Below, in pieces: positions 2,925-29,788 of a stretch of 29,910 nucleotides of DNA. The notes under the pieces were generated by a model. It was not told the origin of the DNA. It made no database searches and saw nothing but the letters and a program-made list of their open reading frames with translations. The translations under genes were made by a program, and so were the position numbers. How positions within the stretch are numbered: the stretch's first letter is position 1; every line of letters starts with the position of its first letter. Source of the stretch: a virus (lineage: Duplodnaviria; Heunggongvirae; Uroviricota; Caudoviricetes); IMG/VR virus record IMGVR_UViG_3300045988_123188. The stretch is one strand, 5' to 3'.

Positions 2925-3618
2925 CCGGGACTGCAGTGTCTCCCGGACGTCATCCGGAAGATGGCTGTAGGGATTGCCATCCACCTTATGGCTGCCGCTG
3001 TAAATCAGCGTGATTTCCACGCCCTGTTTCTCCAGCGCAGCACCGTAATTACTGTGAGCCATCATGACGCCGATGGAGCCTGTCCGGGCGGTCTGCGTGA
3101 CCAGACGCCGGGAGGCGGCACTGGCAAGCAGCTGACCTGCACTGCAGTTCATGTCGTTGGCCAGCGCCCATACCGGTTTTATGTCACGCACACGGGCGAT
3201 GATGTCAGCGCAGTCAAATGCCCCCGCCACCATCCCGCCGGGCGTGTCCATATCGAGCAGAATGCCGTCCACCATCGGATCGCTGGCAGCCTGTTGCAGA
3301 CGGGCGATAATGCCGTTGTAACCGGTCATCCCCGAATACGGCTGCAGCGCCCGCGTCCGGCTGACCAGCGTGCCGGACACCGGCAGCACGGCGATGCCGT
3401 TCATGACCTGATAACTGCGGGCCTGTCGTGGTCCGTTATCATCACCGGATAACGCCAGCGTCGCGGGTGCCTCCGGGGCAGTCAGGCTGTCACCGGACAC
3501 CGCATCTGTCAGGCGGCTGATCCCAAGCTGGCCTGCAAGCGCACAAAAGAAAACCCGCGCATAGGCGGGTTCAAGCATCAGCGGCTCATTAAAGGCCATG
3601 CTGGCAATATGCGGGAGA

Positions 3619-3638: not shown

Positions 3639-7319
<3,681 letters not shown>

Positions 7320-9870: not shown

Positions 9871-9888
9871 GTGCGACCACGGTCGCAC
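9871..9888. promoter_or_regulatory. sopC-like palindrome GTGCGACCACGGTCGCAC (putative SopB/ParB centromere site), ~25 bp upstream of the 286-aa gene start
   Basis: 8-bp inverted repeats around a 2-bp AC core; one of five near-identical copies; resembles the F sopC motif TGGGACCACGGTCCCA as I recall it. Confidence 0.6.
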
Positions 9889-10090: not shown

Positions 10091-10108
10091 GTGCGACCAC
10101 GGTCGCAA
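10091..10108. promoter_or_regulatory. sopC-like palindrome GTGCGACCACGGTCGCAA
   Basis: Second copy, directly abutting repeat B. Confidence 0.6.
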
Positions 10109-13192: not shown

Positions 13193-13210
13193 GTGCGACC
13201 GTGGTCGCAC
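13193..13210. promoter_or_regulatory. sopC-like palindrome GTGCGACCGTGGTCGCAC (inverted core GT)
   Basis: Third copy, between the small-gene cluster and the late promoter. Confidence 0.6.
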
Positions 13211-14484: not shown

Positions 14485-14688
14485 TCAATGATGTGAACGC
14501 TCAACAGCGATAGTTTTCTGACAATGCTGGGCAATCTCTCGCGACATGTTGATGAGTCGTGAAACCTCACCAATATGTAGGCTGGCTTCTGGAGAAGCCA
14601 GGGTGACGCTAACCAGATCCAGAACGGCGTCAATATCTCTTAAATTTGAATCGAGTTGTTCAAGAGTTGATACGGCTGCTTCAGACAT
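14485..14688 (-). CDS. hypothetical small protein (67 aa)
   Basis: Track ORF with ATG confirmed; weak SD. Confidence 0.35.
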   Translation of the reverse strand: MSEAAVSTLEQLDSNLRDIDAVLDLVSVTLASPEASLHIGEVSRLINMSREIAQHCQKTIAVERSHH

Positions 14689-14770
14689 TAGATCTCATAC
14701 CATTTAACTAAAAAAGGTTATTTATACTGTATAAAATTACAGGTTAAAACTCAAACTTGACGGTCAATTT

Positions 14771-19712: not shown

Positions 19713-19938
19713 TTTCTTGTGCGACCACGGTCGCACCCTCTCTGATTTCCAAGTAACGCTTAATCCAAAGATTTTCTATATGCTTATTACCTGGCTGATT
19801 TGATAAATACCAATCGGCAATTACAGACTGCTTATTACTATCTGGTCGTGTCCTGTAACCACAAGTTGGACACCAGATAACATATTCATTTCTTACCCCC
19901 GAATACCTTAATTCTGGCTTCGACGGTTTCCTGAACAT
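19693..19938 (-). CDS. hypothetical zinc-ribbon-like small protein (81 aa, CLCK...CPTCG)
   Basis: Start at internal ATG (MFRKPSKPELRY...). Confidence 0.4.
   Translation of the reverse strand: MFRKPSKPELRYSGVRNEYVIWCPTCGYRTRPDSNKQSVIADWYLSNQPGNKHIENLWIKRYLEIREGATVVAQENENNAI
19719..19736. promoter_or_regulatory. sopC-like palindrome GTGCGACCACGGTCGCAC overlapping the RBS region of the gene at 19712 and the 3' end of the upstream gene
   Basis: Fourth copy. Confidence 0.6.
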
Positions 19939-20958: not shown

Positions 20959-21555
20959 ATGAAAACACGAGGCGAACGACTGAAAGCACGCCGTTTAGAG
21001 ATGAAGCTGACGTTGCGAGAAGTTGCTGAGGCTGTCGATATCTCTATAGCAGGCGTCCAAAACTTAGAACGTGGCGACGTAATGCCGTCACTGGAGATAG
21101 GTATTGCCCTGGCTAAGTGCTTACGCAAGCCAGTGCATTGGGTGCTATATGGGACAGAATATGACCCTGACCGCATTCCTGTTATTGGCACAACTGAAAG
21201 TGGGCCGGATGAAGAGTGGAAGCCGGGACAGGTTCCAAATACTGAGCGATTCCTGCCATTCATCAGCCAGCGCAATACTGTGTATGCGTTAACTATCAGC
21301 AATCTTACGCAGGGAAACTATCAGCCAGGCGATTTTCTCCTGGTCGATTCTGCGCTGGAACTGGTCCCCGGCGAGGATGTTCTGGTTCGTGATACTGCAG
21401 GAAATATCACTATCCAGCGCCTGGCCCGTTTTGATGATGAAAATTACTATCTGGATGGAACAAACTCACAACGCGCCATCTTCAGGAAAAGCGATCTTGA
21501 ATTTGTTCACCAAATAGTCGGAACGATCAAATCATTCATGGTTGAGGGTAGATGA
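20959..21555 (+). CDS. prophage repressor, CI/CB-like (N-terminal XRE HTH plus C-terminal S24/LexA-like fold)
   Basis: HTH LTLREVAEAVDISIAGVQNLERG; C-terminal region GDFLLVDSALELVPGEDVLVRD resembles the lambda CI C-terminal domain; ATG has no SD, suggesting a leaderless mRNA as for lambda cI from PRM. Confidence 0.7.
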   Translation: MKTRGERLKARRLEMKLTLREVAEAVDISIAGVQNLERGDVMPSLEIGIALAKCLRKPVHWVLYGTEYDPDRIPVIGTTESGPDEEWKPGQVPNTERFLPFISQRNTVYALTISNLTQGNYQPGDFLLVDSALELVPGEDVLVRDTAGNITIQRLARFDDENYYLDGTNSQRAIFRKSDLEFVHQIVGTIKSFMVEGR

Positions 21556-21800: not shown

Positions 21801-24800
21801 ATGACATTAAACGATTTCTATGCGGATCGCTTTGGCAGCGATCCGTTCTCGCTAATTGAAGCAGCACGGGATGAACTAACCGAGCTGGCACAGATGGCTG
21901 GTATCAACTGGCCTGCCTGTTCCGACAACATCCAACTCAACCCTCGCGGGGGGGTTGAGCGTTACTCTTCATACAATAAAACATCTCCAGAAGCTCTCGA
22001 AAAGAGCCTGAAAGGACGCGTAGAAATTTACTCCCGGCTGGAACACAGCAAAGGGATTGATTACCCGTTCATTAACTTCGTCCATAAAGGCAGCGATGCT
22101 GGCTCATGGAGCGGTTTCTCCTTCCTGTTTTCTGAATATCGCCGTGAGCAACAACGGAATAATGCGACCGTGGTCGCACAACCGGAAGAAGAACGGGAAA
22201 GAATAGAACGTCAGGCCGAAGCACGTCGTCGCCGTGAAGAACAAAAACGAATTAATGACCTGAAAAACAACCAAATGGACCATGAACGTTTGCTGGGATG
22301 GCTGGCATTCCACAGCGCGTGGGAACATGCTCCGGCTGAAGACGGCTCATGGCCATATGCGATTAAAAAAGGTATTCGTGACGTTTTTAGTTCATGTGAT
22401 GTGCGTCGCGTGACCAGTCACGACAGTGCGAAATGGAGTCGGGGACCAACCACATATATGGCTATCCCTCTGGCTCACCTGGACGGTCGTTACGATGGTC
22501 GTATTGTGGGTTGGCAGCGAATCGACAAACAAGGTGGGAAATACCAGACCAGCGCAGTAACCAGCGGCGATTTCGTCGGTGCCTGCTTTGTTATCGGTGA
22601 GCTGAAAGGGGCGCAAAACATCGCTGTTACAGAAGGTTTTGCTACTGGTGCATCCATCTGGCTTGCCACGAAAAAAGATAAACGCTTTGACGCTGTGGTT
22701 GTCGCTGTATCCGCTAACAACATGGTTCATGTTGTGGAACAACTGGTAAACATGTACCCGGCGGTAAAAATCACCTGCGCACTGGATAATGACCGGAAAT
22801 CTGCCACAGAAGGAAAAGGGAATACCGGCCTGCGGACTGGCTATGAAATCTTATCGAAATTCAACGATGTCCGCTGCGTCTATCCAACTTTTGAAGACGA
22901 TCCGCAAATGGAGTGCAGTGACTTCAACGACCTGCACAAACTACGTGGACTTCGTGAAACAGCACGTCAACTATTTGCAACAGCAAACCGCCTGAAAACC
23001 GGTACTGATTTGCTATCTCTGACGCTCAACCGCCTGAAGACAATTAAGCGGGATAACCGTCGTACTTTTGCCAAAGAGCTGCTGAGAGCGGTGGATATTG
23101 GCATGCTAACCTGCCCGGTTCCTAACAGTCCGTCAGATTTATTTAACATGTTCTGCATCGTTCTGCGTGAAATGGGACTGGAAAATATCTATCGCGCTAC
23201 GGTAAAAGACCACATTGCCCGTCGCCTGAATAAAAAGTGCCGTATTGCCCAGGCTCCGCGCTCTTTCAGCGAACGCATAACTGATCCCAATAAACGCCCT
23301 CAACATATCACCTATAAGCGTTTTGAAACTTCGGTAATGACCGATGATCTCCTGAAGTACGTGCAATCACTACAGGGGATAGTCATCGTCCGTGCTGGTA
23401 TGGGTTCCGGCAAATCTACTGGATTGTTACGACCGTTAATGCATAGCTCAGAACGTGGTATCTCTGTTGCTCACCGTGTCTCCCTTATTGGTGGCCTGTG
23501 GGAAATGATGACAGAAGGAAAAGGTGTAAAAGCCGATATCCTGCACTATCAGGACCCTGGCTATCAGGAAATGGCTCCATACGCCAGTAAACTGACCATC
23601 TGCATAAACTCGATTGTTAAAAACTGCTGGCAACCGTTGATGCGCCAGCACGACTATTTTGGCTTTGACGAGGCCACACAAGGGCTACGTGCCGTTCTTT
23701 CCGGTCGGGCTATGGAAAACCCAGTGGCTGTATTCAATACGCTAATTGACGCGCTGGCCAGAACGGAACAACACCCAATAATGGTGGATGCTGATGCGAA
23801 CGATCTGCTGGTTGACCTGGCTGAACTGGCTATGAAACGCCGTGAAGAACTAGGTTTACCGGCATGGCTGCAGATCCACGTAATTGAATTACCTGTTGAT
23901 GTTCGCAACCGCGAAACAGGTGAGCCAATCCGGGTTTTTTATACAGAAAAAGATCGCATCATGACCGAGGTGGTGAAAGCTGTATCGGATGGCGAAAAAA
24001 TCATGTTGGCCACCGACAGCTCCACCTTTGCAGAAGATGTGACAGCCACCCTGAGAATGCATTTTCCTGGTAAGAAATTTCTGTGTGTAAACCAGAAAAA
24101 CAAACCAGAGCCAGAAGTTGAAGCATTTACCAATCAACCGAAAAAGATGGTCAAAAAATACGACGGCCTGATTTATAGCCCGTCTATTTCATCCGGCGTG
24201 TCGATTGAGCAAAAACATTTTGACCGTCATTTCGGCATGTTCTGTGGTGAAGTTGTACCCAGCGACGCAGTGCAAATGCTACGCCGCGACCGTACAGCAA
24301 AAGAATTTATTATCGGCTTTGATAAAGCTCGTGCAAAACGTGAAACTGACCCGCAAAAAATAGAACGAGCATTCGCCCAGGCATTGCTTGCTACCGCAGG
24401 TATGAACGGTGAACTTACGGATGTCGTTTTCGATGGCGACCGTATATCAATGGGGGTGGCCAATACCGACTTTACCAGGATGAAAATTAAAGCAGCCGCA
24501 ATTGAAGCGACTGCGCGTAACGACTACGCCAGCAACATGATCTGCATCATGCACAGCGACGGTTATAAGGTATCACCGCTGGCCACCGATTATGCTGCGA
24601 ATGATATCGGTAAAGATCTGCGTAAAGAAGCGCGGGATATTGTGTGGGAACAGACACTGGATCTGCACCTCAATACAGAAACTCCACAAGAATCAGAGCG
24701 TGAAAAACTGCTAAAAAAACGCGCGCTGACGCTTGAAGAACAGGCAAAACTTGTCCGCTGGGATATTGAAAACGAACTGAAACTACCGGTTGAAGAAGGC

Positions 24801-25796
24801 ACGCTGAAATTCTATTTCGATGGTGCTCGAGACAAAGTTCGCCGCTATGAAACAATGCTTTTAGATGAGGTAACAGCTCGTCGTTACGACCGGGAAGAAG
24901 CAGCCATCAATTTTACCTACGCATACCGTCAGGCGGGACAGTGGCAATATTTTGTAGTGACCGCGATGACTCGCGAGCAGGCTGATGATGTCTTTAAAAC
25001 TAAATTCCCTGGAATAATCGATCACAAGGTAAAAGCTACTCCTACTGTTGAAGTCGGGGCGCGCGGTTTCTATGCGCTTAAATCAGCAACTCTCCGGCAG
25101 TACTTTATCGACTGCGGTATCAACCCTGAGACTATGACCGGCGAGGCGACTCAGGAGCGTCTCAAATTCGCTCGAGATAACCTCATGACAGCCGAACGCC
25201 GTGACCTGTTGAATAACGTTCTGCACATTGGTGGTTTTATGACGCCAAAAGGGAAGCCTAAAGTGCCGGAAGCGTTGTTTAAAAACATTTGCGACTCTCT
25301 TGGCCTTAAAACAGGTAAACGTCGCGGCAGAGACGGCGATAAGCGTCCAACCTTGCGTTTTGTTGAGCCTGAATCAGCGGCATTTATGCTGGATATTCTT
25401 GTTCAGCGTCAGAAAGATGGCCTAACCCTAAAAACGCGTAAAGCCGAGAAGACAGCCATCGAAATGGATCGCGATTTGGATCTCAATATATATATGGATG
25501 ATAAAACGCGATCCACAAACGAGCAGGTTCAAAACGCCCCTCATTCAGTAATTTCTGAGGCTTTGGCCGTGTTGCCAGTGGCTGTACCTGAGTCCTGGGC
25601 GATGAGTGCGCTTTCCAGTGAGGAGTTGGCCACTATGTCATCATGGTCATCAGCCAGCATAGCTATGACGTTTGCATCTCTGTACCTCACAGAGTTCATG
25701 GATCACCTTTCCAGCAATGAGCTGCGGCGGTTACGTGAATACATTACGGGGAATAGCTCATGCAGCTACGAAGAGCAGGGCGCTTTCTTTGGGTAA
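21801..25796 (+). CDS. repA: replication protein RepA, multidomain primase-helicase (N15 RepA-like)
   Basis: 1331 aa; Toprim/primase-like segment (NIAVTEGFATGASIW...TCALDNDRKSATEGKGNTG), Walker A GMGSGKST, Walker B-like FGFDEA; size and architecture match my recollection of N15 RepA (~1320 aa). Confidence 0.8.
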   Translation: MTLNDFYADRFGSDPFSLIEAARDELTELAQMAGINWPACSDNIQLNPRGGVERYSSYNKTSPEALEKSLKGRVEIYSRLEHSKGIDYPFINFVHKGSDAGSWSGFSFLFSEYRREQQRNNATVVAQPEEERERIERQAEARRRREEQKRINDLKNNQMDHERLLGWLAFHSAWEHAPAEDGSWPYAIKKGIRDVFSSCDVRRVTSHDSAKWSRGPTTYMAIPLAHLDGRYDGRIVGWQRIDKQGGKYQTSAVTSGDFVGACFVIGELKGAQNIAVTEGFATGASIWLATKKDKRFDAVVVAVSANNMVHVVEQLVNMYPAVKITCALDNDRKSATEGKGNTGLRTGYEILSKFNDVRCVYPTFEDDPQMECSDFNDLHKLRGLRETARQLFATANRLKTGTDLLSLTLNRLKTIKRDNRRTFAKELLRAVDIGMLTCPVPNSPSDLFNMFCIVLREMGLENIYRATVKDHIARRLNKKCRIAQAPRSFSERITDPNKRPQHITYKRFETSVMTDDLLKYVQSLQGIVIVRAGMGSGKSTGLLRPLMHSSERGISVAHRVSLIGGLWEMMTEGKGVKADILHYQDPGYQEMAPYASKLTICINSIVKNCWQPLMRQHDYFGFDEATQGLRAVLSGRAMENPVAVFNTLIDALARTEQHPIMVDADANDLLVDLAELAMKRREELGLPAWLQIHVIELPVDVRNRETGEPIRVFYTEKDRIMTEVVKAVSDGEKIMLATDSSTFAEDVTATLRMHFPGKKFLCVNQKNKPEPEVEAFTNQPKKMVKKYDGLIYSPSISSGVSIEQKHFDRHFGMFCGEVVPSDAVQMLRRDRTAKEFIIGFDKARAKRETDPQKIERAFAQALLATAGMNGELTDVVFDGDRISMGVANTDFTRMKIKAAAIEATARNDYASNMICIMHSDGYKVSPLATDYAANDIGKDLRKEARDIVWEQTLDLHLNTETPQESEREKLLKKRALTLEEQAKLVRWDIENELKLPVEEGTLKFYFDGARDKVRRYETMLLDEVTARRYDREEAAINFTYAYRQAGQWQYFVVTAMTREQADDVFKTKFPGIIDHKVKATPTVEVGARGFYALKSATLRQYFIDCGINPETMTGEATQERLKFARDNLMTAERRDLLNNVLHIGGFMTPKGKPKVPEALFKNICDSLGLKTGKRRGRDGDKRPTLRFVEPESAAFMLDILVQRQKDGLTLKTRKAEKTAIEMDRDLDLNIYMDDKTRSTNEQVQNAPHSVISEALAVLPVAVPESWAMSALSSEELATMSSWSSASIAMTFASLYLTEFMDHLSSNELRRLREYITGNSSCSYEEQGAFFG
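22163..22178. promoter_or_regulatory. sopC-like palindrome TGCGACCGTGGTCGCA embedded in repA coding sequence (encodes NATVVAQ)
   Basis: Fifth copy; the only one inside a gene. Confidence 0.55.
25466..25514. other. candidate replication origin inside the 3' part of repA: inverted repeats GGATCGCG/CGCGATCC flanking (AT)5, with three GATC sites
   Basis: Seen in sequence; N15 ori is reported to lie within the 3' region of repA (recall). Confidence 0.35.
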
Positions 25797-26186: not shown

Positions 26187-26582
26187 ATGGCTGTTCAATC
26201 ATACAAATACGAATCCCCTTTGGATAAGGGATACATTCGTATCAAGTTAAGTCGTTCTCAGCATAAGGCTATTTTTAAGGTAAGGAAAATTCGCATATTG
26301 GATGCGTATGCGTATTACTACAACGGTGAAAATGTTGTTGTTGAACACTTTATTGCACGATGGTTTGTAGCTCTGATTTTTGTCCCTCTCCTGTTAATTG
26401 GTACTTTTGTGGATGGTTTTCCTAGTACATGGCGGGAGATAAAGAAAGGCCTATTCCCGCGTAAGTACGGCAGATTTTCGCAAGATAGCTGGCGAGTTAT
26501 ACCTGGTAAACATTCTGTAGATGAGCAACCGATTGTTGATTTCTGGTTGAATCGTATGGCTGATGCTAAAAAAGTTGATTGA
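26187..26582 (+). CDS. hypothetical single-pass membrane protein (~132 aa)
   Basis: ATG 2 nt after the upstream stop; TM segment WFVALIFVPLLLIGTFV. Confidence 0.45.
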   Translation: MAVQSYKYESPLDKGYIRIKLSRSQHKAIFKVRKIRILDAYAYYYNGENVVVEHFIARWFVALIFVPLLLIGTFVDGFPSTWREIKKGLFPRKYGRFSQDSWRVIPGKHSVDEQPIVDFWLNRMADAKKVD

Positions 26583-26609
26583 ATTGTGATGACTGTTACA
26601 GGAGATAAA

Positions 26610-26897
26610 GTGAAGAGTTTTATTTTTGTTTTATGTTTTGCCTTTTCTGCTGCGGTTTATGCCCAGGAAGATAGCATTTCTGTTATTAACTCATCAGCGG
26701 ACCTTGCATGTAAAAATAATCCCGATGCTGCATCAAAAGAGTCATGCAAAGAGCTGCTCCTTTCGACGGCTGCTTTTGCTTCTGAAAATGCAAAATTTTA
26801 TTCAGCCTTTTGTCGCGGCTATGTTAAGGACGAAGATAAAGAAAAATGTGATGATGCCGGTAAGTTAGTTAGGTATTTCCAATCTCTTAATCAATAA
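26610..26897 (+). CDS. small secreted cysteine-rich protein (~95 aa)
   Basis: GTG start 5 nt after AGGAG; signal peptide KSFIFVLCFAFSAAVYA then QEDS; 6 Cys in the mature part. Confidence 0.5.
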   Translation: MKSFIFVLCFAFSAAVYAQEDSISVINSSADLACKNNPDAASKESCKELLLSTAAFASENAKFYSAFCRGYVKDEDKEKCDDAGKLVRYFQSLNQ

Positions 26898-26999
26898 TGG
26901 CCTTTGATTAACGATCAACTTCTGATCACTCGTTCAAGCAAACTATAAAAACACCTGTCCCCGTGACTGGTCACGGGGTAAAATGTCTTTGCAAATTAT

Positions 27000-27110
27000 T
27001 GACGTGCGCGTCGTTTTGACGGTAAAGTTTACTCCGCTACGGTAAATCCCGTAGCCGGGCGTAGGAACCCGAGTAAATGAAGCGCACAACACGCGCCAGC
27101 GTGTTTTTTT
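27000..27110 (+). ncRNA. candidate small antisense regulatory RNA (c4/CA-like) of the anti-repressor locus, ending at an intrinsic terminator
   Basis: Hairpin GCTACGG-TAAATC-CCGTAGC (~27036-27055), terminator AACACGC-GCCA-GCGTGTT + T7 (~27088-27110); 7-nt blocks CGGTAAA and GTAGGAA are complementary to TTTACCG and TTCCTAC ~130 bp downstream in the icd leader (~27181-27200). Confidence 0.3.
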
Positions 27111-27273
27111 GTGTGTAAAATCTGCGTACACCAAATTTATGGTGGCTCAGATGGGGCAGCTTTTAGCTGGCCGGTTTCTTCGTTTACCGGTATTCCTACC
27201 CCCGTCTGGGCTACCGCCATATAGAGCGTAGGAACTCTGGTGGTAGCACGACCAATTAAACGGAGTGCATACC

Positions 27274-27438
27274 ATGTTCAAATTCAAATTTGCGGCAATC
27301 GTTCGCACAGACAAAAAGTCACACATCCATCATCTTTCCACCATCGCGTCATCTGAACGGGAAGCTCGTCGCCAGTTCGCCAGCCGGTTTGTCCTGGTAT
27401 TGTCTGCCCGTATTCCGGTGCGCGAGGTGGCTGCATGA
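27274..27438 (+). CDS. Icd-like small protein (54 aa), putative cell-division inhibitor
   Basis: MFKFKFAAIVRTDKKSHIHHLSTIASSEREARRQFASRFVLVLSARIPVREVAA; SD GGAG 8 nt upstream; ATGA overlap with the next gene; not in the ORF track (<60 aa); family assignment from recall of Icd-like proteins. Confidence 0.4.
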   Translation: MFKFKFAAIVRTDKKSHIHHLSTIASSEREARRQFASRFVLVLSARIPVREVAA

Positions 27439-27668
27439 ATCAGGTAAAAATGAACACTGTTGGCCTGCTGGAATCGTTGGATGAACGTCTGGCTCAGGTC
27501 TATGCGCTCGTATCATCAGCCCATCGGACAATCTCCAGTTGTGAGGCGTCGATTTATCTCTCAGAAGCAGGGAAACTCCTTCAAATTGCGTGTGAGCTAA
27601 CACACGAAGCACAGGGTTATTCAGCATCGCTCTCGTCGCAATTGCTGCACGATAAGGAGGCTGAATGA
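27435..27668 (+). CDS. hypothetical protein (77 aa), AntA-position gene of the anti-repressor operon
   Basis: Track ORF; translationally coupled on both sides. Confidence 0.4.
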   Translation: MNQVKMNTVGLLESLDERLAQVYALVSSAHRTISSCEASIYLSEAGKLLQIACELTHEAQGYSASLSSQLLHDKEAE

Positions 27669-27829
27669 GCGCGTTAGCAGTCTTTTCCTTTCAGGAAGAG
27701 CATCAGGTTCGTGTAGTGATGATTAACGGCGAACCGTGGTTTGTTGCATCTGATGTGTGTATGGCGGCGGGTATTGATTCTACGGCCATCAGAAAGTTGG
27801 ATGAGGACGAAAAGGGGCAGGCGAGGTAG
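27665..27829 (+). pseudogene. truncated Bro-N/AntA-type antirepressor N-terminal domain (54 codons)
   Basis: MSALAVFSFQEEHQVRVVMINGEPWFVASDVCMAAGIDSTAIRKLDEDEKGQAR resembles Bro-N domains but stops after ~54 aa, whereas Bro-N proteins are usually over 100 aa. Confidence 0.4.
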
Positions 27830-27839
27830 ACCACACAAC

Positions 27840-27865
27840 AAGGCACCGATAATTCGGTGCCTTTA
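27840..27865. terminator. hairpin AAGGCACCG-ATAATT-CGGTGCCTT between converging ant operon and telN
   Basis: Perfect 9-bp stem seen in sequence; T-rich flank is modest. Confidence 0.4.
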
Positions 27866-27874
27866 CCGTATGCT

Positions 27875-29788
27875 TTATCCGAAATATGTCAGCCATGCTA
27901 ACTGCATTGCTGATATAGGGCTGTTTGCACTGCCGGACCAAGCATAATTCTGGCCATTATAATGAAACTCAACAACGTATGAGCCATCACCAATATTTCT
28001 CACAGGCTTAAATACCGGCTTAGATACAGGTGAAGAAGGCGCGGGCGGTTGCTGTTCTTCTACGCTCTCTTCCTCTTCCTCTTCCTCTTCCTCTTCCTCT
28101 TCCTCTATCTCAATTTCGTCGTCATCCAGATCGTCATCCTCTGATAATTCATCCGTCTGTTCAGGTATTGCTTCCAGCTCTTCTTCGTCAGGCATAACGA
28201 TTTCTGGAGAATCTATTTTCAGCTGCCATTGTCCATTTTCGCCAACAAATTGCCCCAGAGCATCAGCAGCAAATTCCAGGTATCGACTAATCATTGTAGG
28301 GCTAAATTTGAATGCTCTTAGAGTGCTGTTCGTGATTTTTATAGAGGGGTCATGCTCTACCAGCTGCTTAACTGTGTTATGCAGACGAACCCCGGCATCT
28401 CCTCTGGCGAATCCTGGCATTTCGTCATCAAGCTGCTGCAATGCTTCCAGCCTGGTATTTTCGTTTCCAGTATTTGGCCTCCATGTCTTTGAGAAGTTGG
28501 CCAGCTTGAATTGCTTATAGTGTAATTGAGTGTTTTCATCGTCATGGCCTAAAATTTCCATAAAGAAAACATCCTCATCTACGTTTTTCCAACGAGGATC
28601 TACGCGGAAAAACATTTCATACGCAATACGGGCATAAATAGCACGACTATCTTTATAAACACGGCGGTCATCTTTGAAAAATGATTTAACCCACGGGTTA
28701 AAAGCCTTTGCTAATATGGCATTAATCCGTCCGTTTTCAGAGCGTGTGTCGTTATCTCCATAACCTTTAACGACATCATCAAAATCAGATGCTGCTGGGC
28801 ATGAGCGAAGTACATTTATTAAATAAACAAATGTTTTTGCTTCGCATAATGTATATATTTTTCTGGTTATATCATCAGAAGTTCTTTTTTTTGCTTGGCC
28901 TAAAAAATCAACGGTATACTTACCAGAAACAGTAAATGTACCTTGATACATAATCTCAATCATTCGTCTTCCTGACAATGCAGCAAGTGCAAATGCCAAA
29001 GGAGCCATACCTGAACGAGTGTTTAGATTATTTAATGTAGCAGGGCTATTTATAATATCGTAAATAGCTTGCATATATTTAGGGTAATCAATGACCACCA
29101 CGTTACGTTTCTTATTGTGCAGAACGTCCGCCCATCGTTGCTGGATAGATGCGCGTTCGGCAGGGCTTAGTTGAAGATGATAGAGAATCTCATGGTTAAC
29201 TTTTAGCTGATTCAACTCCTCAAGTAAGGCAGATCCTTGCTGTAGTAATTTATATAAATAATCGCGCTTATCTTTCCAGTTATCGCTAGTTAAATCAGAT
29301 ATGGCGAATTGCCACTCTTTATATTTATTTGATAATTTTAATAACTTATTATGACTTTTGTTATCACCAATTCTGATATTAGATAAATCTTCTGATAAAG
29401 GGAGAATTAATTTTAATTTTGCCTGTAAAGCTGACATTCTCTGGCGAATATCGGCAGCAGGTAGAGAAAGCCATGACAATAGCTCCTCATTATATAAAGG
29501 ATACTTTTCAGATAGGCGATGTATATTTTTTTCAAAGCTATGATGAAGTTTATCATCAAACCGTTTTCTGGCCCTGCTCATATAGGCATTGAAGGTGTTG
29601 GCTGTAATTCTTTTTTCTAATCCTTTCCCCCTAAACTTTCGCTTATCATTAAATAATGCATTTTTAAATTTTAATGCAACAGCCTTTATTTTTTTTGTTT
29701 TTTCCCCTTGAGGACGGTCAGAGTTATCTATTGACTCAACATCGCTAACAAGTGAGTTTATTAATTCACCGATTTTTACTTTGCTCAT
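27875..29788 (-). CDS. telN: protelomerase TelN (telomere resolvase)
   Basis: 637 aa; MSKVKIGELINSLV...KRITANTFNAYMSRARKRFDDKLHHSF..., YLYKLLQQGSALLEELNQLKVNHEILYHLQLSPAERASIQQRWADVL, NTRSGMAPLAFALAALSGRRMIEIM, RINAILAKAFNPWVKSF...RVYKDSRAIYARIAYEMFF (catalytic Tyr region) match N15 TelN as recalled; SD GGAGAGGAAA. Confidence 0.9.
   Translation of the reverse strand: MSKVKIGELINSLVSDVESIDNSDRPQGEKTKKIKAVALKFKNALFNDKRKFRGKGLEKRITANTFNAYMSRARKRFDDKLHHSFEKNIHRLSEKYPLYNEELLSWLSLPAADIRQRMSALQAKLKLILPLSEDLSNIRIGDNKSHNKLLKLSNKYKEWQFAISDLTSDNWKDKRDYLYKLLQQGSALLEELNQLKVNHEILYHLQLSPAERASIQQRWADVLHNKKRNVVVIDYPKYMQAIYDIINSPATLNNLNTRSGMAPLAFALAALSGRRMIEIMYQGTFTVSGKYTVDFLGQAKKRTSDDITRKIYTLCEAKTFVYLINVLRSCPAASDFDDVVKGYGDNDTRSENGRINAILAKAFNPWVKSFFKDDRRVYKDSRAIYARIAYEMFFRVDPRWKNVDEDVFFMEILGHDDENTQLHYKQFKLANFSKTWRPNTGNENTRLEALQQLDDEMPGFARGDAGVRLHNTVKQLVEHDPSIKITNSTLRAFKFSPTMISRYLEFAADALGQFVGENGQWQLKIDSPEIVMPDEEELEAIPEQTDELSEDDDLDDDEIEIEEEEEEEEEEEEESVEEQQPPAPSSPVSKPVFKPVRNIGDGSYVVEFHYNGQNYAWSGSANSPISAMQLAWLTYFG
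28067..28102. repeat. perfect hexanucleotide microsatellite (CTCTTC)6 inside telN, encoding a poly-Glu run
   Basis: Six tandem perfect units on the plus strand, equal to (GAAGAG)6 on the coding strand, giving EIEEEEEEEEEEEEESVEE. Confidence 0.85.

Follow-up and report, generated by a model that had tools for sequence, protein, structure and literature searches.

A probable orthologue of the phage N15 immA operon, with a C4-family antisense RNA and a shortened antB gene, in an N15-like linear plasmid prophage

An N15-like linear plasmid prophage has, flanked by the repA-side genes and by telN, a locus that is very probably orthologous to immA of phage N15, the operon for secondary immunity or anti-immunity. 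The locus lies in a 29,910-nt stretch of viral DNA, referred to here as the window, and comprises, in order and all on the plus strand, a promoter-like site, an isrK/seqA-type leader, a terminator, a C4/CA RNA, icd, antA and a remnant of antB. The operon is on the repA strand and convergent with telN, as is N15 immA, and it provides the plasmid prophage with a complete switch for secondary immunity that is RNA-based and of the N15/P1/P4 type. Loci of the immA type are already described, and this one, which differs in the specificity of its RNA and in its shortened last gene, is ordinary and well explained; it leaves current understanding unchanged, being a known type of RNA-controlled switch with a different specificity and with antB lost by deletion. 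Here, we describe the identities of its parts, the folds of its RNAs, the complementarity and covariation between the antisense RNA and its targets, the deletion in antB and, elsewhere in the window, an antC gene with a LexA box.

The immA operon of N15 and its CA-RNA mechanism were reportedly described by Ravin, Svarchevsky and Deho (1999), and details of N15 antC by Mardanov and Ravin (2007). The c4-icd-ant1/2 arrangement of P1/P7 immI is said to be the subject of Citron and Schuster (1990), Biere, Citron and Schuster (1992) and Riedel et al. (1993), and the immunity of satellite phage P4, with seqA, cI (seqB) and seqC, that of work by Deho, Ghisotti and co-workers. The locus in the window shares with P1/P7 immI a C4-family RNA (RF01695) whose a'/b' segments have downstream a2/b2 and putative upstream a1/b1 copies of their targets, the placing of a2/b2 over the icd ribosome-binding site, the translational coupling of icd to an antirepressor gene, and a heteroimmune specificity set by the a/b sequences. 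It differs from P1 in its antirepressor, the 77-aa AntA, which is not known to be related to P1 Ant, in the isrK-type promoter-proximal terminator that precedes the RNA, and in belonging to a linear plasmid prophage of lambdoid type. With P4, whose immunity RNA system is mentioned in PMC4825925, it shares the design of one small RNA, presumably processed here too, with a single-stranded block complementary to one upstream and one downstream leader site; what follows downstream is icd, antA and the antB remnant here, in contrast to the replication operon (kil, eta, alpha) of P4.

Position, promoter and leader

The assignment to immA is supported by synteny and a megablast match to N15 genes 32-31-30, which likewise separate the repA side from telN, and by 79% DNA identity to N15 from the leader through icd into the start of antA. 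N15 immA has the same position, the same Rfam pair of isrK and C4, the same terminator and upstream palindrome, icd and antA (63% identical). A reading made from the sequence alone had proposed an anti-repressor locus with a c4/CA-type antisense RNA at this place; the C4 match and the orthologous N15 locus bear this out, and the hairpins, terminator, ORFs, complementary blocks and palindrome that it listed are all present where it had put them. The leader, which it had estimated at about 370 bp with stacked hairpins and a strong terminator, is a 376-bp non-coding interval from the stop of an upstream 103-aa ORF (26897) to the icd ATG (27274), and it folds far more stably than shuffled sequences (-105.3 kcal/mol for the whole leader, z -6.4).

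The sole promoter-like match within 26500-28100 is a sigma-70 promoter-like site at 26999-27028 (TTGACG, 18 nt, TAAAGT), the equivalent of Pa, the -35 TTGAC of which is kept in 23 of 23 related leaders. Transcription is predicted to start at ~27035/27036, and the Rfam isrK model begins at 27036. The 74-77-nt isrK/seqA-type leader RNA (~27036-27110) scores 62.5 bits against isrK (RF01394; gathering 50), and a match to c4-a1b1 (RF03163) at 27023-27075 reaches 34.3 bits, under the gathering score of 46.7. In the predicted fold the leader consists of hairpin 1 (27036-27055), hairpin 2 with b1 in its loop, a single-stranded a1 and the hairpin of the intrinsic terminator (27088-27110; the Ta equivalent). 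The terminator has the stem AACACGC/GCGTGTT (27088-27105) with a GCCA loop and a run of seven T residues (27104-27110), and it matches a putative rho-independent terminator annotated in N15; the terminator scan returned five terminator-like sites against 1.6 expected. It is this transcript, ending at ~27110, that the sequence-only reading had taken for the antisense RNA. That element is instead the isrK/seqA-type leader carrying the a1/b1 targets. The C4/CA character of the regulatory RNA was correctly recognized, but its location before the terminator was not, and the C4 RNA sits 3' of the terminator.

The C4 antisense RNA and its targets

The C4/CA antisense RNA gene (27135-27221) matches the full RF01695 model (positions 1-87) at 73.6 bits, with a gathering score of 45. 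Its fold is a long closing stem with two hairpins, and the minimum free energy structure is that of the model (-44.4 kcal/mol, z -5.6). The a' segment (CUUCGUUUAC, 27178-27187) occupies the loop of hairpin 2, and b' (UUCCUAC, 27193-27199) lies in the junction. Across 17 relatives, pairing is 100% in helices 1 and 3, and five pairs in helices 1-2 are changed on both sides. In N15 the C4 match falls at the start of the annotated 'cA secondary immunity repressor' feature, the genetically defined cA locus. In P1 and P4, C4-type RNA is excised from a longer transcript by RNase P; the RNA in the window has a 3' tail of GCCA, and this tRNA-like sequence after the closing stem (27216-27219) is the sole hint of such excision here.

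RefSeq labels the RNA gene of relatives as an 'ash family protein' or covers the equivalent of 27109-27231 with an over-long Icd-like CDS, and this interval does contain ORFs of 37-40 codons that begin with GTG or TTG; orf45 of the Salmonella prophage Gifsy-1 is, moreover, reported to be translated (PMC4825925). That 27109-27231 encodes a small protein of the ash or orf45-like kind rather than an RNA regulator is nevertheless extremely improbable, given that neither of the two ORFs in the window has an NCBIfam match, that relatives carry single-base indels breaking any reading frame within the interval, and that substitutions are compensatory in the RNA helices of an element with a strong covariance-model score. 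The C4 stretch was accordingly set aside as a protein-coding ORF.

As an antisense RNA, the C4 element has two sets of targets. The upstream set, b1 (GTAGGAA, 27061-27067) and a1 (GTAAATGAAG, 27073-27082), is complementary to b' and a'; the downstream set, b2 (GTAGGAA, 27228-27234) and a2 (UAAACGGAG, 27257-27265), was identified by complementarity and covariation, b2 lying in a hairpin loop and a2 containing the icd Shine-Dalgarno sequence GGAG (27262-27265). The resemblance to the P1 a/b arrangement suspected beforehand holds, with b'/b2 and a'/a2 pairing and a2 over the Shine-Dalgarno sequence. Two 7-nt blocks had been offered in its support, as segments of the pre-terminator RNA complementary to blocks just upstream of icd. 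Both perfect complementarities exist (GTAGGAA at 27061-27067 with TTCCTAC at 27193-27199; CGGTAAA at 27040-27046 with TTTACCG at 27183-27189), but the partners lie inside the C4 gene, 75-90 nt upstream of icd, and not directly at icd. Only GTAGGAA/TTCCTAC covaries in relatives. CGGTAAA/TTTACCG is not conserved in N15 or YDC107_1 and was therefore not taken as a functional pairing. The conserved second block is shifted, such that CUUCGUUUAC (27178-27187) pairs with GUAAAUGAAG (27073-27082) and with UAAACGGAG (27257-27265). TTCCTAC is complementary to GTAGGAA at 27228 as well as at 27061, the seqA/seqB/seqC pattern of P4.

The three-way covariation was recognized by eye in the alignment and counted separately for each target. 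For the upstream target, 11 pairs are changed on both sides and the score was reached by none of 500 shuffles; for the downstream target, pairing is 87.1%, eight pairs are changed on both sides and again none of 500 shuffles did as well. The C4 segment 27174-27205 is predicted to form a duplex of -34.5 kcal/mol with leader positions 27055-27086. Changes matched at all three sites divide 17 distinct relatives into at least six specificity classes, found among N15-like plasmids of E. coli, Shigella and Klebsiella. The element in the window belongs to class TTCCTAC and N15 to class TTGAGAA; N15 has TTGAGAA as b' in place of TTCCTAC and CTTCTTGTAC as a' in place of CTTCGTTTAC, and its targets differ to match. 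Cognate duplexes are predicted to be more stable than non-cognate ones both upstream (-32.8 versus -20.7 kcal/mol) and downstream (-24.2 versus -18.3 kcal/mol). Judged from these sequences, a'/b' and the two target sets define immunity specificity. Chromosomal P4-like elements of E. coli have identical b' and b2 (TTCCTAC/GTAGGAA) and different a' loops, and since some classes share b' with these satellites, cross-talk between co-resident elements is possible. A further predicted hairpin (27240-27275; helix 5), presumably functional, joins an invariant block, GGUGGUAGCAC, to the icd start region, GUGCAUACCAU; it is 91% paired in relatives with little covariation, and a possible alternative partner of GGUGGUAGCAC is the 3' strand of the closing stem of C4.

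By analogy with its relatives, the RNA processing, the block of translation and termination, and the antirepressor activity of the locus may be pictured as follows. The promoter at 26999-27028 would start the leader at ~27036, and most transcripts would stop at the 27088-27110 terminator, yielding the short isrK/seqA-type RNA of 74-77 nt with b1 and a1. Read-through transcripts would carry the C4/CA RNA, which, as for P1 c4, P4 CI and N15 CA, would be cut out of the leader. In free C4 RNA, a' and b' would be single-stranded and could pair with a2, over the icd Shine-Dalgarno sequence, and with b2. This pairing would block the translation of icd and, because of the ATGA overlaps with icd, also that of antA and the antB remnant, to which Rho-dependent polarity would probably be added; in a lysogen the AntA antirepressor and the Icd division inhibitor would therefore stay off. 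The a'/b' segments are predicted to pair more strongly with a1/b1 than downstream, which would sequester them in cis in the unprocessed transcript, and C4 RNA may be drawn away from the mRNA by the short terminated leader. If the leader is abundant, its ratio to C4 RNA could in this way set a threshold switch for antA and icd, joining the repression logic of P1/P4 to the activation logic of Gifsy-1 IsrK. The terminator is predicted to form with or without C4 pairing to a1/b1, so that RNA control of termination at this site in the style of P4 or N15 is not evident from the structure.

The isrK-orf45 (STnc1160)-anrP locus of Gifsy-1 shares with this one an isrK-family leader that has a terminator of its own, read-through into C4-like sequence complementary to the leader's central part, a downstream antirepressor gene, and alternative long-range and local RNA structures (PMC4825925). 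It differs in having no icd, in its other antirepressor, AnrP, and in the activation of translation by its short RNA: IsrK targets the read-through transcript in trans and turns on antirepressor translation and prophage induction (PMC4825925). Because the short leader RNA of Gifsy-1 is an activator and not a passive by-product, the net logic here could be more complex. Taken to its limit, the precedent would make the short RNA ending at ~27110 the main regulator, acting in trans as an activator or a sponge for C4; the segment 27036-27109 is over the isrK threshold, has its own promoter-like site and strong terminator, and could form the -34.5 kcal/mol duplex with the a'/b' region, a cis-paired structure being likewise predicted. 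We regard this as improbable. The partner of the short leader is the C4 RNA and not the icd ribosome-binding site, only C4 a' covers the Shine-Dalgarno sequence, cA, the immunity determinant of N15, falls where C4 is and not in the leader, and the downstream genes are icd-antA as opposed to orf45-anrP. A regulatory role of the short RNA would in any case complement the C4 model rather than replace it.

A conserved palindrome upstream of the promoter

The sequence-only reading had also marked a 20-bp palindrome as a possible regulator site. The perfect palindrome CCCCGTGACTGGTCACGGGG (CCCCGTGAC-TG-GTCACGGGG), of the GTGAC-NN-GTCAC type, lies exactly at 26959-26978, centred ~67 bp ahead of the predicted start of the leader, and the suggestion is plausible and has been strengthened by finding three conserved copies. 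The 12-nt core GTGAC-NN-GTCAC occurs exactly three times in the window and in N15, where 0.00-0.04 copies are expected. One precedes the immA promoter, one is within repA and one falls on the ribosome-binding site of the gene 47 homologue, and the triad is found at the same positions in N15 and N15-like contigs.

The palindrome is situated 62 nt past the stop of the 103-aa gene and as RNA forms an 8-bp GC-rich hairpin (-15.5 kcal/mol, z -2.6), as would be expected of a mere transcription terminator for that gene. This is an unlikely explanation, however, since no U-tract follows the hairpin, the terminator scan did not report it, and the core recurs exactly three times per genome, with one copy inside the repA coding sequence and another at a ribosome-binding site. 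Furthermore, its arms are invariant in relatives and the central dinucleotide is variable, which favours a dimeric DNA-binding protein over an RNA stem. Two known N15 sites were considered and rejected as identities for the palindrome. The SopB centromere motif (IR1-4, GTGCGACC-NN-GGTCGCAC; PMC7205306) is absent from immA and has five copies elsewhere in the window, and the annotated N15 operators of the CB repressor are of the AT-rich TATAG/CTATA type.

The palindrome is thus a plausible candidate regulator site. A broader and more tentative proposal, which we think possible but doubtful, takes together two ideas: that the triad comprises operators of an undescribed regulator of N15-like phage-plasmids, and that the terminated leader is a decoy for C4. 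The small products of genes 46 and 47, adjoining one of the palindromes, are candidates for such a regulator. Searches of Pfam, NCBIfam and PDB returned nothing significant for the gene 46/47 homologues, and a single-sequence AlphaFold model of the gene 47 homologue (pLDDT 60.9) was too poor for structure search. A regulator of the triad would, if the proposal is true, link replication with anti-immunity and with the gene 46/47 module.

The coding genes, antC and the antB deletion

The immA operon of N15 comprises icd, antA and antB (PMC4488713). In the window the corresponding ORFs of 54 aa, 77 aa and 54 codons are joined by ATGA overlaps at both junctions (icd/antA at 27435-27438 and antA/antB remnant at 27665-27668), consistent with the translational coupling first proposed. 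The Icd-like ORF, absent from the initial list of reading frames, is genuine and conserved. Encoding a 54-aa Icd-like cell-division inhibitor (27274-27438), it matches all of NF033153 (phage_ICD_like; positions 1-48 of 48, E 1.3e-18, 66.8 bits versus a cut-off of 25), an identical ORF is annotated by RefSeq in NZ_CP061364.1, and 20 synonymous against four non-synonymous codon differences from N15 indicate purifying selection.

The antA orthologue (27435-27668) encodes a small antirepressor of 77 aa that is 63% identical to N15 gp31 and 94-96% identical to the counterparts in close relatives. Its profile matches are phrog_6301 (E 1.7e-36) and phrog_10889, an 'anti-repressor' family; sequence searches of Pfam and PDB gave no match for AntA. 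In the literature AntA is named the active immA product in N15 and PY54, and the function of AntB is called unelucidated (PMC4488713, PMC10612081). In the window a CB-type repressor, the presumed target of AntA, is encoded at 20959-21555.

A second gene of this family lies on the minus strand at 14488-14688. It encodes a 67-aa AntC orthologue that is 56% identical (E 6e-25) to an unannotated ORF behind the LexA box of N15 (CTGTGTTTATATACAG) and matches phrog_6301 at E 1.8e-35. Before it, also on the minus strand, is a perfect LexA box, CTGTATAAAATTACAG (14727-14742), the only LexA-box match in the window; none is present at the immA promoter. AntA and AntC are paralogous by shared PHROG membership and profile comparison, although BLASTP found no match between the two. 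Induction of N15 runs via antC (PMC4488713), and AntC is LexA-controlled (PMC3121763). By analogy, induction by DNA damage should proceed via antC, the paralogue under LexA control, and not via the immA locus. The short Bro-N gene had earlier been read as a sign that the real antirepressor was deleted or lay elsewhere. The first part does not hold, as antA, the antirepressor named in the literature, is intact in the locus; the second does, insofar as an SOS-controlled AntC is found at 14488-14742.

The Bro-N gene itself is truncated, as had been noticed. The antB remnant (27665-27829; Pfam Bro-N, PF02498) retains 50 codons from the 5' end of the Bro-N gene, followed by four foreign codons and a stop, and its Bro-N match (30.7 bits versus a cut-off of 25.6) covers profile positions 1-41 of 96 only. 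Full-length AntB has 264 aa in N15, with Bro-N at residues 15-108, and 258 aa in YDC107_1. The 264 codons of N15 antB compare with 54 here after a deletion of 738 bp, measured relative to YDC107_1, with its junction at a GGG(G) run from 27814 and GGG microhomology. A sequencing frameshift that concealed an intact Bro-N gene is ruled out by this clean deletion, which is common to many independent assemblies. Between the remnant and the convergent telN stop (27875) lies a hairpin, GGCACCGA-TAAT-TCGGTGCC (27842-27861), that is also conserved in YDC107_1, rightward of the segment deleted here; from its sequence it is probably a shared terminator that the deletion spared on its right-hand side.

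With AntB reduced to 50 of ~260 codons and under half of its Bro-N domain, and with Bro-N proteins of the AntB type called 'anti-repressor' by RefSeq and PHROGs, the operon might be viewed as a decaying, non-functional remnant in which the loss of antB ended anti-immunity and the rest is drifting. This is very unlikely in view of the purifying selection on icd, the intact antA with close counterparts, and the perfectly matched specificity that the C4 RNA and both target sets keep. Additionally, PY54-type phages are naturally without antB, and their antA alone prevents lysogenization (PMC10612081). The deleted form is found in two sequence clades (at least 99% and ~93% identity), in 13 of the 17 complete E. 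coli genomes that could be compared, and also in PhiR46_1 and many plasmids. It is the common form among the E. coli genomes examined, which suggests that these elements can do without the Bro-N protein AntB. A Shigella sonnei plasmid is identical to the window over the 1-kb locus, antB deletion included.

An orthologue of N15 immA on a linear plasmid prophage

The window carries genes for a RepA protein (21801-25796, + strand, 1331 aa) and, convergent with the locus described here, for a protelomerase (telN; 27875-29788, - strand, 637 aa). Over 26586-27900, identity is 93.8% to Escherichia phage PhiR46_1 and 89.7% to YDC107_1, a phage assigned to the genus Ravinvirus; 26909-27547 is 78.8% identical to phage N15, and 26900-27900 matches Shigella sonnei plasmid NZ_CP061364.1 at 100% identity and several E. 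coli plasmids at 99% or more. Together, these genes and identities show that the window comes from an N15-like linear plasmid prophage, of which it forms the right arm. The sequence-only reading, which placed an anti-repressor locus of the c4/CA type ahead of telN, was right in outline: judged by its sequence, the locus is an orthologue of N15 immA, the secondary immunity and anti-immunity operon, from which it differs by belonging to another RNA specificity class and by having lost antB. Every part of it is a catalogued family, and the system has already been described by experiment in N15; the points left of interest are a triad of palindromes and a possible decoy role of the leader.

As that reading had recognized, three small ORFs (54, 77 and 54 codons) are coupled by ATGA overlaps (27435-38 and 27665-68). 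The first is a full-length member of the NCBIfam family phage_ICD_like (E 1.3e-18) and has a counterpart in N15 icd, from which it differs by 20 synonymous and 4 non-synonymous codons, a ratio that marks icd as a real gene under constraint. The 77-aa product shares 63% identity with N15 gp31 (AntA), of which it is the orthologue, and belongs to phrog_6301 and phrog_10889, the latter labelled "anti-repressor". The third ORF is indeed a truncated Bro-N gene, matching positions 1-41 of the 96-position profile and no more. Full-length AntB, whose Bro-N domain occupies residues ~15-108, is 264 aa long in N15 and 258 aa long in YDC107_1. Alignment with YDC107_1, which is collinear with the window up to its position 3408 and again from 4144, the two segments sharing GGG at window 27814-16, reveals a 738-bp deletion that removed AntB from codon 51 onward, together with most of a small ORF downstream; a hairpin at 27842-61, ahead of the convergent telN stop, survives. 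The possibility that a sequencing frameshift had shortened the ORF, so that its correction would restore a full-length Bro-N gene, is ruled out because the junction is shared by PhiR46_1, by 13 complete E. coli genomes, from two sequence clades, out of the 17 with a query coverage of 80% or more, and by about 17 plasmid records; the deletion is inherited.

Two observations concern the flanking genes. The 103-aa ORF upstream (26586-26897) has a signal-peptide-like N-terminal segment and a counterpart in PhiR46_1 annotated 'Spackle exclusion protein', its sole family match being phrog_26765, of unknown function. Within telN, a (CTCTTC)n-type repeat at ~28056-28106 (- strand) encodes a run of ~13 glutamates near the protelomerase C-terminus.

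The C4 RNA and its covarying targets

The non-coding leader, estimated earlier at ~370 bp, measures 376 bp from the stop of the 103-aa ORF (26897) to the icd ATG (27274). Its sole promoter-like site, TTGACG-18-TAAAGT at 26999-27028, predicts a start at the first base of an Rfam isrK match (27036-27109; 62.5 bits, above the curated threshold) that coincides with the terminated leader, making the latter a member of the family studied in Gifsy-1. The strong intrinsic terminator noted before is present (stem 27088-27105, then T7). Downstream of it lies an Rfam C4 antisense RNA (27135-27221; 73.6 bits, above the curated threshold). Rfam likewise matches the isrK and C4 pair at homologous positions in N15, where the old GenBank feature "cA, secondary immunity repressor" starts where C4 does. 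A c4/CA-like antisense RNA had thus been correctly anticipated, but not its placement as a transcript ending at ~27110: sequence homology identifies the regulator as the element 3' of the terminator. Folding of the C4 RNA reproduces the family structure (-44.4 kcal/mol, z -5.6), and across 17 distinct relatives, where compensatory changes occur, pairing in its helices stays at 100%. The Rfam c4-a1b1 family matches 27023-75 at 34.3 bits, below its threshold of 46.7.

In RefSeq relatives, the equivalent of 27109-27231 is annotated as an 'ash family protein' or as an over-long 'Icd-like' CDS (183-196 aa) spanning the C4 RNA gene; these are probably protein calls placed over an RNA gene. One related viral contig that shares this leader shows duplications (3787-3933 and 5136-5282): the sok antitoxin RNA is present in two copies, and the isrK and C4 elements are duplicated in inverted orientation. 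Two GATC sites 11 nt apart (GATCAACTTCTGATCA, 26913-26927), ~110 bp upstream of the leader start, are kept in N15-like relatives, the N15 equivalent being CTGATCAGGTTCTGATCAG.

The tripartite target design is known from P1 c4 (a1b1 / a'b' / a2b2) and P4 (seqA / seqB / seqC). In the window, the exposed a' block (CUUCGUUUAC, 27178-87) lies within the loop of C4 hairpin 2 and b' (UUCCUAC, 27193-99), likewise exposed, in the C4 junction. The complements of b' are b1 (27061-67), in the hairpin 2 loop of the leader, and b2 (27228-34), in a hairpin loop; those of a' are a1 (27073-82), in the leader, and a2 (27257-65). The a':a2 duplex, CUUCGUUUA with UAAACGGAG, spans the icd Shine-Dalgarno sequence GGAG (27262-65), 8 nt before the ATG. 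The two 7-nt complementarities reported earlier are both perfect (CGGTAAA/TTTACCG and GTAGGAA/TTCCTAC), but they join the leader ahead of the terminator to sequence beyond it.

An exact search with the terminator sequence gathered 23 distinct homologous leaders from viral contigs, of which 17 non-identical ones were aligned. At least six b classes occur among these 17, and all three sites change in concert; b' variants are TTCCTAC, TTGAGAA (N15), TTGCGAA (PhiR46_1), GTTCCAA, TTGTCAC and TTCTCAC. The a blocks covary too, N15 having CTTCTTGT with ACAAGAAG and ACAAGA. Between C4 and the upstream targets, 81.5% of cells are paired and 11 pairs changed on both sides; for the downstream targets the values are 87.1% and 8. 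No shuffle of 500 reached the score in either case, and sliding the partners lowered pairing to 37-58% and 42-55%, respectively. Cognate duplexes are more stable than non-cognate ones, at -32.8 versus -20.7 kcal/mol upstream and -24.2 versus -18.3 kcal/mol downstream. In a scan of one genome per species, the tripartite arrangement recurs, with further classes, in prophages of many Enterobacterales.

Megablast of the 1-kb locus against 5426 complete E. coli genomes found 464 with any match and 443 chromosomal matches; among the chromosomal matches listed, the C4 segment alone was covered, at ~82-87% identity. Two chromosomal elements (both at 1390-1680 of their extracts, L066 and L067) have b'/b2 as in the window (TTCCTAC/GTAGGAA) and different a' loops, and one of them adjoins a P2-family capsid gene. 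Elements residing together could conceivably show partial RNA cross-talk.

Proposed regulation and alternative RNA structures

The promoter-like site, the a1/b1 leader, the terminator, C4, the a2/b2 targets spanning the icd ribosome-binding site, the three coupled ORFs and the covariation of specificity can all be read from sequence and comparison; the working proposed for them is that of P1 immI, P4 immunity and N15. By this analogy, the C4 RNA, whose closing stem is followed by a tRNA-like GCCA, would be cut out of read-through transcripts and would pair with b2/a2, blocking translation of icd and, with it, of the coupled antA. The block would probably bring about Rho-dependent polarity, leaving the operon silent in lysogens. 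For a1/b1 and the terminated leader three roles are possible: a partner sequestering in cis, a site at which the RNA promotes termination, as has been proposed for N15 and P4, or an IsrK-like decoy or activator in trans.

Folding bears on these roles. The minimum free energy structure of the full read-through leader (27036-27290; -105.3 kcal/mol, z -6.4) lacks the C4 fold; a1/b1 are instead joined in cis to a'/b' by a nearly continuous helix of 26 bp. This predicted helix resembles the long-range helix of structure A at the Gifsy-1 isrK locus (PMC4825925). The terminator hairpin is predicted to form with or without C4 pairing, so RNA-controlled termination is not evident from modelled structure alone. 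An invariant block, GGTGGTAGC (27241-49), has two predicted partners: in the consensus fold of the relatives it is bound to the 3' strand of the stem that closes C4, and when C4 is folded or excised it would pair instead with the icd start region (27265-75). This alternative could act as a conformational switch, although it lacks covariation support because the block never varies.

A likely second antirepressor and the palindrome triad

One account of N15 lists immA as icd, antA and antB, states that AntB function "has not been elucidated" and has induction begin with antC (PMC4488713). AntC is under LexA control (PMC3121763), and in PY54-type phages, which are without antB, antA alone abolishes lysogenisation (PMC10612081). 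The sole perfect LexA box in the window (CTGTATAAAATTACAG, 14727-42) sits between a TTGACC -35 element and a 67-aa ORF (14488-14688, - strand) that is 56% identical to an unannotated N15 ORF; the latter likewise follows a LexA box, in the gap separating genes 47 and 48. This antC orthologue is likely the SOS-inducible antirepressor of the prophage. BLASTP found no similarity between AntA (27435-27668) and AntC; both fall in PHROG family 6301, and their profiles align with hhalign (probability 93%, E 3.5e-7). These relationships identify the two as paralogues and point to an element with two small antirepressors, one RNA-controlled and one SOS-controlled. The suggestion that the real antirepressor was deleted or lies elsewhere is not supported in its first part, antA being an intact orthologue, and holds in its second through antC, yet N15, with an intact antB, has that gene too.

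The perfect 20-bp palindrome previously noticed, CCCCGTGACTGGTCACGGGG, lies exactly at 26959-26978. Exactly three copies of its core, GTGAC-NN-GTCAC, are present in the window, against 0.00 expected. One lies upstream of the immA promoter (26963-74) and one within repA (22410-21); the third (15024-35) is located at the ribosome-binding site of the homologue of N15 gene 47 and also overlaps the gene 46 homologue at its end. N15 also has exactly three copies (28550, 33237 and 39269; 0.04 expected) in the same three places, as do other N15-like contigs. Among the leaders compared, the two central bases differ between palindromes whose arms are invariant, and the palindrome is missing from non-N15-type phages with the same leader. 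It is not the N15 SopB centromere repeat, which has the form GTGCGACC-NN-GGTCGCAC and is found elsewhere in the window, and it is not an operator for CB either. Given the conserved triad, its invariant arms and the exclusion of both sites, the best reading is a putative regulator-binding site. Searches with the gene 47 homologue gave no informative match, and its single-sequence structure model was poor; the gene 46 homologue, which adjoins a palindrome copy, belongs to a PHROG family labelled "transcriptional regulator". The SopB-type inverted repeats themselves, with 0-1 mismatch, number five (9871-9888, 10091-10108, 13193-13210, 19719-19736 and 22162-22179) against 0.13 expected by chance, and are spread over the right arm much as the IR sites of N15 are dispersed.
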